Source of the DNA: a virus | DNA length: 64,000 nucleotides | Strand: one strand, 5' to 3' | Virus record (IMG/VR): IMGVR_UViG_3300044712_000815 | Location: 1 to 64,000 of that record | Part shown: in pieces, positions 20,456 through 26,044 of the stretch | Position numbering within the stretch: the first letter of the stretch is position 1 | How the letters are laid out: each line of letters starts with the position of its first letter | Translations under genes and position numbers: made by a program | The notes under the pieces: generated by a model | Databases searched by the model: none | What the model was told of the DNA's origin: nothing | The model's input: only the letters and a program-made list of their open reading frames with translations

Positions 20456-21331
20456 ATGAATAAAAATAAAAATTGTTGGAGAAAAATTGATACATATGCC
20501 AAAAAATTAAAGGCGATTATATTATTAGGTGGTAAATGTGAACATTGTGGTGAAACTAATTTTTTTAAATTAGAATTTCATCATTTAGAATCAGAAGAAA
20601 AAGAATATAATATATCACGAATTAGAAATTATAGATGGTCAATTATTGAATCAGAAATAAAAAAATGTAAATTATTATGTCGAAATTGTCATAATGAAGA
20701 ACACAATGGATATAAAGATAAAAGAAGATTTATTAATAAAAATACATTTTTAGATTTTAAAAAAACAATTAAATGTGAAAAATGTGAATATGATAAATAT
20801 ATTGGATCATTAGATTTTCATCATATTAATCCAAAAATTAAAGATTTAACATTAAGTCAACTTAGTTTAAAATATAACAACATTCAAGAATTGACTGAAA
20901 ATATTAAAATGGAATTAGATAAATGTGTGGTATTGTGTAAAAATTGTCATTCATTAGAACATTCAGATATTGAATTTTTCGAAAAATATAAAGATATAAT
21001 TATTGAAAAATCTAAAAATCTAAAAGAAGTTCAATCAAAAATTGATAGATATGAAGTAAAAAAATTGTATGATGGTGGAATGAAACAAATTGATATTGCT
21101 AAAAAATTAAATGCATCTAAAAGTACGATTAGTGATATAATTAAAATGTCAAAAGATATAATAAGTAAAGAAAAAAGAATAAATAAAGATGATGTTAAAA
21201 AATTGTATGAATGTGGAATGAAACAAATTGATATTGCTAAAAAATTAAATACCAATAGTAGTACAATTTGTGAAATTATAAAAAAATTAAAATTAAATGG
21301 TCTTGTAGTAGCGGAGTCTTCTAAACTCTAG
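20456..21331 (+). CDS. HNH homing endonuclease (two HNH modules + two HTH repeats) inside tRNA array
   Basis: CEHCG..LEFHH..LCRNCH and CEKC..LDFHH..LCKNCH; MKQIDIAKKLN x2; 3' end overlaps the next tRNA-like gene. Confidence 0.85.
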   Translation: MNKNKNCWRKIDTYAKKLKAIILLGGKCEHCGETNFFKLEFHHLESEEKEYNISRIRNYRWSIIESEIKKCKLLCRNCHNEEHNGYKDKRRFINKNTFLDFKKTIKCEKCEYDKYIGSLDFHHINPKIKDLTLSQLSLKYNNIQELTENIKMELDKCVVLCKNCHSLEHSDIEFFEKYKDIIIEKSKNLKEVQSKIDRYEVKKLYDGGMKQIDIAKKLNASKSTISDIIKMSKDIISKEKRINKDDVKKLYECGMKQIDIAKKLNTNSSTICEIIKKLKLNGLVVAESSKL

Positions 21332-21378
21332 TCGTATAATGGACACTGTAAATGTGGGTTCGAGTCCCACCTGGATCA
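21299..21378 (+). tRNA. D-armless tRNA-Arg(TCT)-like RNA
   Basis: GGTCTTG/CTGGATC acceptor, 7-nt connector, GGAGT-CTTCTAA-ACTCT, 24-nt variable region, GTGGG-TTCGAGT-CCCAC. Confidence 0.7.
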
Positions 21379-21476
21379 CAAAAATGAATGTTCACTTGTT
21401 CACGAAAAATAACCGTTCACGAAACGTGAACAAATGAATAAAATGAATAAAGAGTTCATTGACATATTGAATTTAT

Positions 21477-21549
21477 AGGGGATGGGACTGCTTGGTGTGG
21501 TCGCTGTACATACGGTACAGAGAGATGGCTTCGAAAACCATATCTTCTA
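21477..21549 (+). tRNA. Degenerate tRNA-like gene (TAC anticodon, A33, G3:U70 acceptor)
   Basis: AGGGGAT/ATCTTCT; GACT/GGTC D-stem; CTGTA-CATACGG-TACAG; imperfect T-stem. Confidence 0.5.
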
Positions 21550-21554
21550 CTATT

Positions 21555-21626
21555 GGGGGTTTAGTATAATGGCTATTACATCTGGTTTGCAACCACAAGA
21601 TACGAGTTCGATTCTCGTAACCTCCA
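21555..21626 (+). tRNA. tRNA-Ala(TGC)
   Basis: GGGGGTT/AACCTCC with G3:U70; one anticodon-stem mismatch. Confidence 0.8.
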
Positions 21627-21630
21627 CAAT

Positions 21631-21704
21631 GGGGCTGTAGTTCAGTTGGCTAGAACATCTGATTTGCATTCAGAAGATCGAGGGTTCGAGACCCTTCAGC
21701 TCCA
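21631..21704 (+). tRNA. tRNA-Ala(TGC)
   Basis: Canonical cloverleaf, G3:U70. Confidence 0.9.
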
Positions 21705-21709
21705 CAAAT

Positions 21710-21782
21710 GCACTTGTAGCTCAGTTGGTAGAGCGCATCCTTGGTAAGGATGAGGTCGTGAGATCGTAACTCATCCTGTGCT
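21710..21782 (+). tRNA. tRNA-Thr(GGT)
   Basis: CATCC-TTGGTAA-GGATG; two acceptor mismatches; atypical T-loop ATCGTAA. Confidence 0.75.
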
Positions 21783-21789
21783 CGGATAA

Positions 21790-23429: not shown

Positions 23430-23448
23430 CAATTTTGGTTTTTAGATG

Positions 23449-24498
23449 TTAATTCAAATTATATTTTGCAAGTGTGACATCCCAAAGATCACTATTGATA
23501 AATTTTATAAGGTTTTTATTAATATTGTTTTCGATAGTTTTGTCACATTTCATACCGATACCATAATATTGTCGATCAAAAGTACTATTAGATAGGTGTA
23601 TTTTTTTAAGATTATTTTTCTTTATATAATATTTAAGAATTGGTGTATCATATACAAAAGTTTCCAAATTTTTACATTCTAAATCATTTAATGCTTCTTC
23701 GATACTATCATATCCAATGAATTTGATATTTTTTGAATTTAAATAATCCACTGCTGTGGTATTTAGAAATGATCCAACTTTTGTTTTATTTAATTGATTG
23801 ATATCTTCTAAGCCATTATCTAACCTATTTACAGTAATAGCAGATGAAATATTACCAATAAAAACTGAAGTGATTCCTAAAGAAATAAGCATCCATAAAA
23901 TTACTATAAGTTTACCTAGTTTAGTTTTTGCTGATTTATCACCAAATCCAACTGTGCTCATAACGACAGTGGCGAAGTAGAACGCATCATAAATACCAAT
24001 AGATACACTTTTATCAAAATCTGGATTATATTTATGTTCAACTAACCATATTAATATTCCAACTATAAAAATAATAAGTAATAAGGATAACACATATTTT
24101 AAAAAAGTAAGTGAAAAAATATTTGAAACTATTGACCAAAATGCAGATTTGGATAAATTTGAAGCTATACTAAGATCTGTTATATAAAAAGGTTGGGAAA
24201 AATTAATTTTATCCATTCGGGTATCACTAATTGTGATTGATCCAAGAATAATATCAAATTTATTTTTGCTAAGTTCATCAACCATTCCATTTATTGAACC
24301 ATCATAAATTTCATATACGTATTCGATATTTGATTCTTTGGCAATTCTTTCCCAAATATCAACGATAAGACCAGTATAGCTACCATTAACATCCATCATT
24401 ACGAATGGTGGCGAATCATACAATCCAACTTTAAGTGGTTCAGATTTTGTAGTTATTCCAATTAGAATAAGTGTGATAATTAGAATTAATTTTTTCAT
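23449..24498 (-). CDS. GluR0-like ligand-gated K+ channel (split solute-binding domain around a 2TM pore)
   Basis: Signal peptide, PPFVM..TGL..D, ITISDTR..FSQPFY, TM-STVGFGD-TM, then S2 lobe; start MKKLILII behind a TATATTTG promoter. Confidence 0.85.
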   Translation of the reverse strand: MKKLILIITLILIGITTKSEPLKVGLYDSPPFVMMDVNGSYTGLIVDIWERIAKESNIEYVYEIYDGSINGMVDELSKNKFDIILGSITISDTRMDKINFSQPFYITDLSIASNLSKSAFWSIVSNIFSLTFLKYVLSLLLIIFIVGILIWLVEHKYNPDFDKSVSIGIYDAFYFATVVMSTVGFGDKSAKTKLGKLIVILWMLISLGITSVFIGNISSAITVNRLDNGLEDINQLNKTKVGSFLNTTAVDYLNSKNIKFIGYDSIEEALNDLECKNLETFVYDTPILKYYIKKNNLKKIHLSNSTFDRQYYGIGMKCDKTIENNINKNLIKFINSDLWDVTLAKYNLN

Positions 24499-24571
24499 AT
24501 GTTTTTTTTTGTACAAATATAACAATTTTTTTGAAATAATTGGATAATATATAAAAAAAATTATTACATTT

Positions 24572-24645
24572 GCCGTCATAGCTTTAATTGGTAGAGTACC
24601 TGATTCGTAATCAGGATGTTGTGGGTTCGAGTCCCACTGACGGCT
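24572..24645 (+). tRNA. tRNA-Thr(CGT)
   Basis: Canonical cloverleaf. Confidence 0.9.
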
Positions 24646-24714
24646 CAATCAGATAGAATATTAGATTTGGTTATTTTTTGAAGTTCGAATATTTATATAT
24701 ACAAATAAAACTGT

Positions 24715-25587
24715 ATGTGTAAATGTAAAATATGTGGTAAAGAATGCAAAAATGTTAATGGAATAGCAAAACATCTAAACATACATAATATAGAATTATT
24801 AAAATATTATGTTAAATATGAAGATTTTGAAATACCAAAATGTATAATATGTGGAAAAGATGCAAAATTAAATAAAGGATTAAAATTTAGAAGAACTTGT
24901 AGTGATATATCTTGTGGTAACAAAACACATAAAATAATACATTCAACTGAAACAAAAATATTACTATCAGAAAAACGTAAAAAATATTTAAAATTAAATC
25001 CAGATAAACATCCTTGGAAACAAAAAGATAAACAATTATCTGTTCCATGTGAATTATTTAAAACAAAATTAAAAAATAATAATATCAATTATATTGAAGA
25101 ATATTCACCATTAGAAGATAGATTTTTTAGTATAGATATTGCGTTTCCTGATAAAAAAATAGGAATTGAAATTAATGGAAATCAACATTATGAAACAAAT
25201 GGAAAATTGAAAAAATATTATCAAGAAAGAAAAAATATAATAGAAAAAGGTGGTTGGAAATTGTATGATATTTATTATACTAAAGTTTATGATGATGATT
25301 TTTGTAATATCGTAATAAATAATTTAAAAAATAATAATTTAGGCTTAATAAATTATGAATTTATTAAATATACAAAAAATACAAATAAATGTGTAGATTG
25401 TAGTTGTGATATAAGTAATGGTGCTAAACGATGTAAAAAATGTAATATTTTAAATAGAATTAAAAATCGACCTAACATAGAACAATTAAAATTAGATATA
25501 ATAGAATTGGGATATTGTGGAACAGGAAGAAAATATAATGTTAGTGATAATGCGATAAGAAAATGGATAAATAGTCCCGTAGCTTAA
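24715..25587 (+). CDS. Putative homing endonuclease (zinc fingers, NUMOD3-like, PD-(D/E)xK/DUF559-like, HTH)
   Basis: IDIAFPDKKIGIEINGNQH; HSTETK..LS; 3' end overlaps tRNA-Arg. Confidence 0.75.
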   Translation: MCKCKICGKECKNVNGIAKHLNIHNIELLKYYVKYEDFEIPKCIICGKDAKLNKGLKFRRTCSDISCGNKTHKIIHSTETKILLSEKRKKYLKLNPDKHPWKQKDKQLSVPCELFKTKLKNNNINYIEEYSPLEDRFFSIDIAFPDKKIGIEINGNQHYETNGKLKKYYQERKNIIEKGGWKLYDIYYTKVYDDDFCNIVINNLKNNNLGLINYEFIKYTKNTNKCVDCSCDISNGAKRCKKCNILNRIKNRPNIEQLKLDIIELGYCGTGRKYNVSDNAIRKWINSPVA

Positions 25588-25645
25588 ACGGAAAAGCCAC
25601 AGATTTCTAATCTGTTGAGTATGAGTTCGAATCTCATCGGGATTA
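25573..25645 (+). tRNA. tRNA-Arg(TCT)
   Basis: Canonical cloverleaf ACAGA-TTTCTAA-TCTGT. Confidence 0.9.
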
Positions 25646-25648
25646 CTT

Positions 25649-25720
25649 GCGAGTGTAGCTCAGGGGTAGAGCATAACCTTGCCAAGGTTAGGGTCGTGGG
25701 TTCAATTCCCTTCACTCGCT
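25649..25720 (+). tRNA. tRNA-Gly(GCC)
   Basis: Canonical cloverleaf. Confidence 0.85.
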
Positions 25721-25965
25721 CAATGTGTAATTCATTAATTTGAATGTTGGAAAAAAGTAGTGGTACTGGATTCTTTTTTGGGTAAGGTAAAAGATGAAGT
25801 AATTATCATTAATAACTTACAAACACAATCGCAAGTGTTTTCGGTTAATATCCGACACATTTAAATCACATATGATCTAACTATAAAGAAACATAACTTA
25901 TGGACATTGTTAGGTTAATGGTTGCAGTAGATAAGAATAATTATGTTTCTTATGTGGTTTTATTT

Positions 25966-26044
25966 GCACCTGTAGTGGCGGGGTTTCCTAAACCTTATGT
26001 GCATAACGGAATGAAAAATGTGGGTTCGAATCCCACCTGGTGTA
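25966..26044 (+). tRNA. D-armless tRNA-Arg(CCT)-like RNA
   Basis: GCACCTG/CTGGTGT, 7-nt connector, GGGGT-TTCCTAA-ACCTT, 23-nt variable region, GTGGG-TTCGAAT-CCCAC. Confidence 0.7.

Follow-up and report, generated by a model that had tools for sequence, protein, structure and literature searches.

Two phage arginine tRNA-like genes with a rewired tRNA core and the family of RNAs that share it

We describe two arginine tRNA-like genes of a giant phage in the first 64,000 nucleotides (hereafter the window) of IMG/VR virus record IMGVR_UViG_3300044712_000815, a 159-kb record of 26% G+C that is estimated to be 22% complete. Both genes, copy A with anticodon UCU and copy B with anticodon CCU, lie in a tRNA array (Table 1), and the comparison with homologous sequences presented below shows that their D-stem is rebuilt around the anticodon arm, from the linker that follows the acceptor 5' strand and the bases ahead of a displaced AAYGG loop. 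We regard this rewired architecture as almost certainly real. On the basis of their sequences, we also consider it quite likely that the two copies are functional arginine tRNAs, that is, decoders charged by the arginyl-tRNA synthetase (ArgRS) of the host.

The rewired core

An initial annotation of the window had pointed to an architecture shared by the two elements, and direct reading together with a descriptor parse found every feature that it listed. The acceptor of copy B (GCACCTG/CTGGTGT) has the same U6:U67 mismatch as that of copy A, its anticodon loop reads TTCCTAA, and its T arm (26020-26036) is the same as that of copy A (GTGGG-TTCGAGT-CCCAC). The variable regions, of 24 nt in copy A and 23 nt in copy B, include GTATAATGGA and GCATAACGGA, respectively. 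The copies are identical at 57 of 80 positions (71%), and the combined motif was matched in the 159-kb record only at these two places. As had been anticipated, gene finders overlook them: ARAGORN with default settings called neither copy, and Rfam RF00005 scored copy A at 28.3 bits and copy B at 28.9 bits, below the cut-off of 29 bits. At a relaxed threshold ARAGORN called copy B as Ile(tat), and its mitochondrial mode at a low threshold returned about 4000 junk calls. A model built from 102 homologues, copies A and B among them (model R1), gave 75.7 and 78 bits, respectively, and at most 35 bits for the normal tRNAs of the same array. A hairpin inside the variable region alone, obtained with RNAfold for copy A, was rejected, since it is conserved neither in copy B nor in the family.

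Homologues came from pattern scans of collections of viral, metagenome and genome sequences, together with a descriptor parse in which no D-stem pairing was demanded. After discarding ten normal tRNAs that the descriptor had misparsed, at least 248 distinct sequences were obtained, with a median pairwise identity of 57%. Positions marked with an asterisk are numbered by their equivalents in a normal tRNA, with 22*-26* for the linker after U8-A9 and 10*-13* for the four bases that precede the displaced loop. Pair 23*-12* is present in 248 of 248 sequences (C-G 164, U-A 65, A-U 10, G-C 9) and 24*-11* in 246 (G-C 148, C-G 57, A-U 29, U-A 10), and the window holds a compensatory change of its own, 24*-11* being A-U in copy A and G-C in copy B. 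Corrected mutual information over the first 109 sequences ranked both D-stem pairs among those of the acceptor, anticodon and T stems (z 9.3 and 11.1). In a MAFFT alignment that was not fitted to the structure, both were held in 101 of 102 rows with 39 and 29 double changes, and the whole structure was 94.9% paired, as compared with 62.4% after shuffling and no more than 45.7% after sliding. On a tree built without the D-stem columns, the two sides of these pairs change together (71, 68, pair 72, and 42, 42, pair 42; control pair 97), and the independent contrasts were 8:0 for each of 23*-12* and 24*-11* (p 0.008 each; control p 1). The Levitt pair 15*-48 is A-U in 235 sequences, G-C in 10, U-G in 2 and A-C in 1, and its sides also change together on the tree (10, 11, pair 11; contrasts 5:0, p 0.06). 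All 7 acceptor pairs covary (alignment A1), as do the other stems.

With only 7-8 nt 5' of the anticodon arm, there is no D hairpin at that place, and the D-stem strands flank the arm instead. The anticodon arm (5-bp stem, 7-nt loop, U33, R37) and the T arm (5-bp stem, TTCRANY loop, directly 5' of the acceptor 3' strand) are canonical. Linker and spacer add up to 15 nt in 198 of 248 sequences (7+8 or 8+7), a constant total that suggests a geometric constraint. A UGNRA-type connector, which resembles a T-loop motif, is found in 193 of 248, a figure partly selected by two of the search patterns, and members with a short connector, such as that of Slicko01, look like a clean block swap. Since the D-stem pairs and the Levitt pair hold in the new order, blocks 10-21 and 22-45 are swapped. 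The secondary structure is a three-way junction, not a cloverleaf, with the D-loop as a single strand running to the T arm.

The chain runs from the acceptor 5' strand through U8, A9, 22-25 and 26 into the anticodon arm and, after a short spacer, through 10-13, the D-loop (A14 A15 Y16 G18 G19 A20), the connector, U48 and the T arm to the acceptor 3' strand. In a normal tRNA, A9 contacts 12-23 and A21 stacks beside 46/48. In addition, G45 contacts 10-25 and G46 contacts 13-22 (triples 10-25-45 and 13-22-46; PMC10424219). The three new links (9 to 22, 45 to 10, and 21 to 46-48) join residues that already touch in this core and, because each of them joins core neighbours, we infer that the normal L-shape is kept. 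It had been proposed at the outset that a D-loop motif moved 3' of the anticodon arm supplies the elbow of a rewired L-shape, and both the 15-48 covariation and an isotype-specific position 20 (see below) make this probable. The two sides of the elbow (G18/G19 and the T-loop) are themselves invariant, with the GG required by the search, so that covariation is uninformative on G18-U55 and G19-C56.

Several observations weigh against this structure. Only two firm Watson-Crick pairs are present in the rebuilt D-stem, 22*-13* being weak (U.U 106, C.U 74, A-U 59, G.U 9) and 25*-10* being paired in 131 of 248 sequences and G.G in copies A and B. Neither RNAfold nor RNAalifold predicted the rebuilt stem, and single-sequence folding of copies A and B was no better than that of shuffles (z 0.41 and 0.15); energy folding is expected to miss so short a stem, because its two or three pairs would be held by tertiary contacts. 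The usual connector of 8-11 nt is longer than a class I variable loop needs. Moreover, the conservation of G18-G19, U8, A9 and A14 is not independent evidence, these bases having been required by the parser.

The elements had been described as D-armless, which is true of the linear drawing only, since a D-stem forms between the linker and the bases ahead of the displaced loop. A tRNA with no D arm at all, as in animal mitochondrial tRNA-Ser, or a decayed pseudogene, would account for the lack of a hairpin 5' of the anticodon arm, for scores below the Rfam cut-off and for the failure of ARAGORN. However, it is contradicted by covariation, the linker pairing with the variable region in all 248 sequences through independent compensatory changes and all other stems covarying. 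The spread of the form found in phage Felix O1 also speaks against it, since 252 GenBank records, mostly of phages of Escherichia, Salmonella and Klebsiella, contain this form over 80% or more of its length; we consider this explanation very improbable. The mitochondrial comparison is therefore the wrong model, since the D-stem is not lost, and the early claim of a conserved RNA class, and not of decay, is borne out by 248 distinct homologues that retain the architecture with covarying stems.

A further possibility is that of a scrambled gene whose transcript is cut and re-ligated into the normal cloverleaf order. Many carriers encode RNA ligases, and an in silico un-swap gives a normal tRNA-Arg for copies A and B and a normal tRNA in 245 of 248 sequences (ARAGORN), although this test is a weak one, as random D-stems pass it at 96% and shuffled D blocks at 68%. 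The transcript would have to be cut three times and ligated three times in a changed order, which a single circular permutation cannot achieve; no conserved splice-site motif was found at the junctions, and the core as transcribed is a geometric fit for the new links, which are short. Such processing is, in our view, extremely unlikely.

Family members, arginine identity elements and probable decoding

Members are mostly 75-83 nt long, with CCA encoded in 84 of the 248 and C74 in 241. Their anticodons are UCU (118), UCG (44), ACG (31), CCU (30), GCG (3), UAU (10), GAU (7), CAU (3), UUU (1) and UCA (1), so that the family covers five arginine anticodons plus an isoleucine type of 20 members and is not the AGR-only class first supposed. 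Similarly, U6:U67, taken initially as a class feature, is a sub-lineage trait present in 38 of 248. Although these counts are biased by the search patterns, the least biased pattern, bystander copies and whole-genome model scans returned only Arg and Ile types, save two single exceptions; the first, narrow pattern had given no matches in viral contigs. Among the singular members, the one at L039:440-527 (+) has anticodon UCA with A20 and might be a UGA-reading Arg tRNA or a sequencing error, that at L423:1838 (-) has UUU with U20 and is of Lys type, and a CCG copy at L012:12773-12851 (+) has degenerate D- and T-loops.

Hosts of the cultured carriers that were parsed belong to Streptomyces, Microbacterium, Xanthomonas, Rhizobium, Pseudomonas, Alishewanella and Salmonella, and the Felix O1 gene is unchanged in coliphages growing on E. 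coli K-12 (e.g. MN850566). The family is essentially phage-only. A scan of 185,579 GTDB genomes with two patterns found members only on contigs of three metagenome-assembled genomes; there were none in 60 relatives of one of these carriers, for which limited candidates were scored, or in the E. coli genomes and plasmids searched. Matches in Gillisia turned out not to be family members.

It is known that A20 is the main bacterial ArgRS determinant, within an Arg set of A20, C35, U/G36 and A/G/U73, and that Ile identity includes A73 and U20 (PMC9976931). A20 is present in 224 of 226 Arg members and, where the pattern did not force position 20, it is A in 132 of 134 Arg members and in 2 of 21 Ile/Lys members; in the normal phage tRNAs of the same loci this position is A in 142 of 155 Arg and U in 88 of 99 Ile genes. 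Position 73 of the Arg members is A in 98, G in 65, U in 61 and C in 2, and A73 is found in 20 of 20 Ile-type members.

Each of the nine rewired Arg genes in six complete cultured phages is the sole gene for its anticodon. Mildred21 has rewired ACG, UCG and UCU genes and a normal Arg gene only for CCU, RHph_I1_18 has rewired ACG and UCU genes and 24 normal tRNAs, none of them Arg, and the remaining slots are filled in Pumpernickel (UCU), XacN1 (ACG), Slicko01 (UCU) and Felix O1 (UCU). No same-anticodon normal gene was seen in 84 of 100 tRNA-rich loci, which are fragments. The Felix O1 gene lies between Ile(GAU) and Ser(UGA), a slot in which Sf14 has a normal Arg(UCU) whose anticodon arm is near-identical. 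The genome paper of Felix O1 reported that an Arg[AGA] tRNA was expected and not found (PMC3185647), and the rewired gene may well supply this reader. In 219 of 220 members the strand is that of the nearest normal tRNA, with a median gap of 52 nt.

No ArgRS was found above the cut-off in five complete carriers, which makes the host enzyme the likely charger. The RNAs would be cut from the array transcript and then receive CCA from an enzyme, be charged by the host ArgRS through A20, C35 and U36, and read AGA/AGG during infection. A CCA-adding enzyme had no match in the record of the window, itself 22% complete.

Decoding is made less certain by a number of redundancies. The normal Arg(UCU) gene reported for the array in the initial annotation was indeed found by both ARAGORN and Rfam, and copy A is redundant with it by anticodon. 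LR756501, a 735-kb record, also has a rewired Arg(UCU) alongside a normal one, a same-anticodon normal gene accompanies the rewired one in 16 of the 100 tRNA-rich loci, and the rewired Ile(GAU) of Mildred21 is redundant with a normal gene. In addition, the link between Arg and A20 has only 3 independent contrasts on supported branches (11 on all branches) and is non-significant. The redundancy of copy A and of those 16 members would fit RNAs that fold as described and go unused on the ribosome, acting on anticodon nucleases, tRNA-modifying toxins or ArgRS as L-shaped decoys or sponges; tRNAs are indeed cut by host defences, which some phage tRNAs counteract (PMC12445682), and some irregular tRNAs are charged yet unused in translation (PMC5389517). 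Against decoys stand the nine slot-filling Arg copies, the Felix O1 copy that takes the place of the normal tRNA at the Sf14 locus, the joint shift of anticodon, position 20 and position 73 between Arg and Ile, as in charged tRNAs, and the intact 7+5 acceptor/T helix, and we consider them unlikely. Hence, of the AGR decoder or decoy proposed at first, the decoder fits better than the decoy, judging by the slots filled in complete genomes.

In Mildred21 and Pumpernickel, Ro-like genes are found within or next to the tRNA array, the Felix O1 array is preceded by an 'RNA-binding protein' gene and, as PMC11482910 suggests, some of the Bas63 'tRNAs' may be Y RNAs. These observations could point to Y RNA-like (YrlA type) partners of a phage Ro60-like protein in which the resemblance to tRNA is mimicry only. 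However, YrlA (RF02553) did not match copies A and B even at E 10, and an open acceptor end and a true anticodon are kept. Searches for Ro-like genes with PF11443 (PF05731, TROVE, misses even that of Sf14) further revealed that Slicko01 and vB_PsaM_M1 have a rewired RNA without a DUF2828 Ro-like gene and that Sf14 has such a gene with a normal Arg tRNA, so that we give this possibility very little credence.

Comparison with known RNAs and possible reasons for the rewiring

With class I tRNA-Arg (RF00005; Sf14 tRNA-Arg(TCT), MF327003 15811-15887) the rewired RNAs share the 7-bp acceptor, the 5-bp T stem and T-loop, the 5-bp anticodon stem and the 7-nt loop, as well as U8, A9, A14, R15-Y48, G18-G19, A20, C35, U/G36 and R37; they differ in that no D hairpin is present 5' of the anticodon arm and in that the D-stem encloses this arm. 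Judging from sequence, the function would be the ordinary one of a class I tRNA-Arg, in an architecture for which we found no precedent. In D-armless mitochondrial tRNA-Ser, a short unpaired-looking stretch likewise replaces the D hairpin in the linear drawing, but there D-stem and D-loop are lost, the T arms are altered and the canonical L-shape is lost or loosened, whereas in the rewired RNAs, which belong to phages of bacteria, nothing is lost: they have a canonical T arm and retain D-stem, D-loop and Levitt pair in a new order. The circularly permuted tRNA genes of red algae and archaea also carry their segments out of order, and circularisation plus cutting restores a normal cloverleaf; in contrast, the internal swap of two adjacent blocks is not undone by such steps. 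Allo-tRNAs, SelC* tRNA-Cys and 8/4 tRNA-Ser/His (PMC5389517) are similarly non-standard, come from metagenomes and phages, are missed by finders and include UCU, CCU, UAU and GCG anticodons. Allo-tRNAs are nevertheless cloverleaves with an 8/4 or 9/3 acceptor branch, a long D-stem, a long variable arm and Ser-type identity (PMC5389517), unlike the rewired RNAs, in which the branch is 7/5 throughout, identity elements match the anticodons and the chain order differs. Finally, YrlA Y RNA, the tRNA-like domain of transfer-messenger RNA (tmRNA) and the tRNA-like structures of plant viruses (PMC10424219, PMC9976931) all reach a tRNA-like L-shape by other connectivity, but each forms part of a larger RNA or has no anticodon that decodes, whereas the rewired RNAs are encoded by separate genes of tRNA arrays and show all the elements of decoding and identity.

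A literature search whose coverage left out most subscription papers found no description of the rewired family, and reviews (PMC7609411, PMC9976931, PMC5389517) deal with changed stem lengths and mitochondrial arm loss and mention no swapped chain order. The order of the cloverleaf arms has been treated as fixed for the tRNAs of bacterial systems. Should the RNAs decode, it would follow that shape, not connectivity, is what the translation machinery reads and that nature has a second wiring of the tRNA core, which may also serve as a new scaffold for engineered tRNAs. Sf14 provides a natural normal allele at the Felix O1 locus, which makes the function of the rewired form directly testable. 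The results also correct annotation: in hundreds of GenBank phages these genes are either unannotated or wrongly named, the labels over members being tRNA-Phe(gaa), tRNA-OTHER, tRNA-Ser, tRNA-Leu and tRNA-TERM. Such mis-annotation would explain the 'missing' AGA tRNA of Felix O1 and bias studies of phage codon use.

As to why the core was rewired, our preferred guess, offered tentatively, is that it evades host enzymes that use the D-arm or the variable region in recognising or cutting tRNA; equally, a block may have been transposed within a tRNA gene and the resulting fold, being equivalent, have persisted neutrally. Examples of phage tRNAs resistant to host nucleases are documented (PMC12445682). 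The nuclease resistance suggested in the initial annotation gains no support from the UCU loop, since its sequence, CTTCTAA, is listed in PMC12482277 as that of the host loop, and any protection would have to reside in the core or in enzyme recognition rather than in the loop. No Arg/Ile-specific enzyme acting through the D-arm was named in papers on OLD, Schlafen, DARNA and retron nucleases, which leaves the escape idea without a named target. In its full extent, the proposal is that of a natural class of fully functional non-cloverleaf elongator tRNAs (topological isomers), accepted by host RNase P, CCA enzyme, ArgRS or isoleucyl-tRNA synthetase, EF-Tu and ribosome, and kept by phages of many bacterial groups through escape from host tRNA-targeting defence, and we give it somewhat less than an even chance.

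The tRNA array and its surroundings

The features of the two genes, their array and the mislabelled loci of other phages are collected in Table 1.

Table 1. Coordinates of the two rewired genes, of their array and of related loci
Feature	Position	Strand	Remarks
Copy A, rewired tRNA-Arg(UCU) gene	21299..21378	+	80 nt to A73, CCA unencoded; sequence, model R1, RF00005
Copy A, acceptor	21299..21305 (GGTCTTG), paired with 21371-21377 (CTGGATC)	+	U6:U67 mismatch; A73 = 21378
Copy A, linker TAGTAGC	21306..21312	+	U8, A9, D-stem 3' strand equivalent 22*-25* = G,U,A,G, then 26* = C
Copy A, anticodon arm	21313..21329	+	5-bp stem, loop CTTCTAA, anticodon UCU = 21320-21322, A37; sequence and covariation
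Copy A, 10*-13* and displaced D-loop	21334..21343	+	10*-13* = G,U,A,U, then A14 A15 U16 G18 G19, A20 (21343)
Copy A, connector and T arm	21344..21370	+	Connector with UGUAAAU end (UGNRA-type; U48 = 21353), then T arm 21354-21370
Copy B, rewired tRNA-Arg(CCU) gene	25966..26044	+	79 nt to A73, CCA unencoded; anticodon 25987-25989
Copy B, linker TAGTGGC	25973..25979	+	U8, A9, D-stem 3' strand equivalent G,U,G,G, C26*; partner strand 26001-26004
Copy B, 10*-13*, displaced D-loop and connector	26001..26019	+	10*-13* (GCAU), D-loop AACGG, A20 = 26010, connector, U48 = 26019
tRNA array (Pro, Ala, Thr, Gly, Val, Arg)	20183..26044	+	One strand; interrupted by HNH, methyltransferase, ion-channel and endonuclease-like open reading frames
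Normal cloverleaf tRNA-Arg(UCU)	25573..25646	+	Comparator in the same array; ARAGORN and Rfam
Mislabelled loci in GenBank	MF155946 91367 and 86379; OQ508956 17417; NC_025447 73587; MK773491 338202		Last two BLAST matches only

In the long open reading frames (ORFs) of the record, AGA makes up 62% and AGG 10% of the Arg codons. A 1213-aa protein of the record, with tail sheath proteins as its annotated hits, has 52% identity to a protein of LR756501. A promoter scan remained at chance level (58 vs 48.6 +/- 7.1). In metatranscriptome run X1 (share 0.09), assembled contigs of a related phage span copy A and are continuous from the upstream ORF, evidence of a kind that cannot reveal transcription, RNA ends or CCA addition; in this relative G30-C40 is replaced by A-U (21316 G>A and 21326 C>T).

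Directly ahead of the array, a 36-codon leader ORF (19994-20160, +) with a run of Ala, Thr, Val, Pro and Gly codons and one AGA codon is followed by a terminator-like hairpin, and a similar leader of 42 codons is present in LR756501 (L075:3502). The match between the codon content of the leader and the amino acids of the array is circumstantial. Two ORFs of the + strand end within tRNA genes, that of an HNH/HTH endonuclease (20456-21331) within copy A, with its stop at 21329-21331, and an endonuclease-like one (24715-25587) within the normal tRNA-Arg(UCU). The array also holds a class I S-adenosylmethionine methyltransferase gene (22658-23275, +) and an antisense ligand-gated ion channel gene (23449-24489, -; SBP_bac_3, Lig_chan, Ion_trans_2). 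Ahead of copy B lies a 240-nt non-coding stretch (25725-25965, +) with a long imperfect hairpin, the folding z of which is only -1.2.

Other tRNA genes of the array are unusual as well. Those for Pro, Gly, Val and Thr at 20313, 22085, 22450 and 22542 (+) have long variable arms (85-89 nt in all), which is uncommon for these amino acids, and adjoin copies of normal length. A tRNA-Gly at 22215-22288 (+) has anticodon ACC (A34), rare in bacteria, and a weak Rfam score of 39.8 bits, and a weak Pro-like gene is found at 20183-20259. A degenerate tRNA-like gene at 21478-21549 (+), unseen by ARAGORN and Rfam, has a 7-bp acceptor, a loop CATACGG (UAC, A33) and a T-stem mismatch, and is probably a decayed tRNA. 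Farther along the window, at 43418-43780 (+), the phage encodes a tmRNA.

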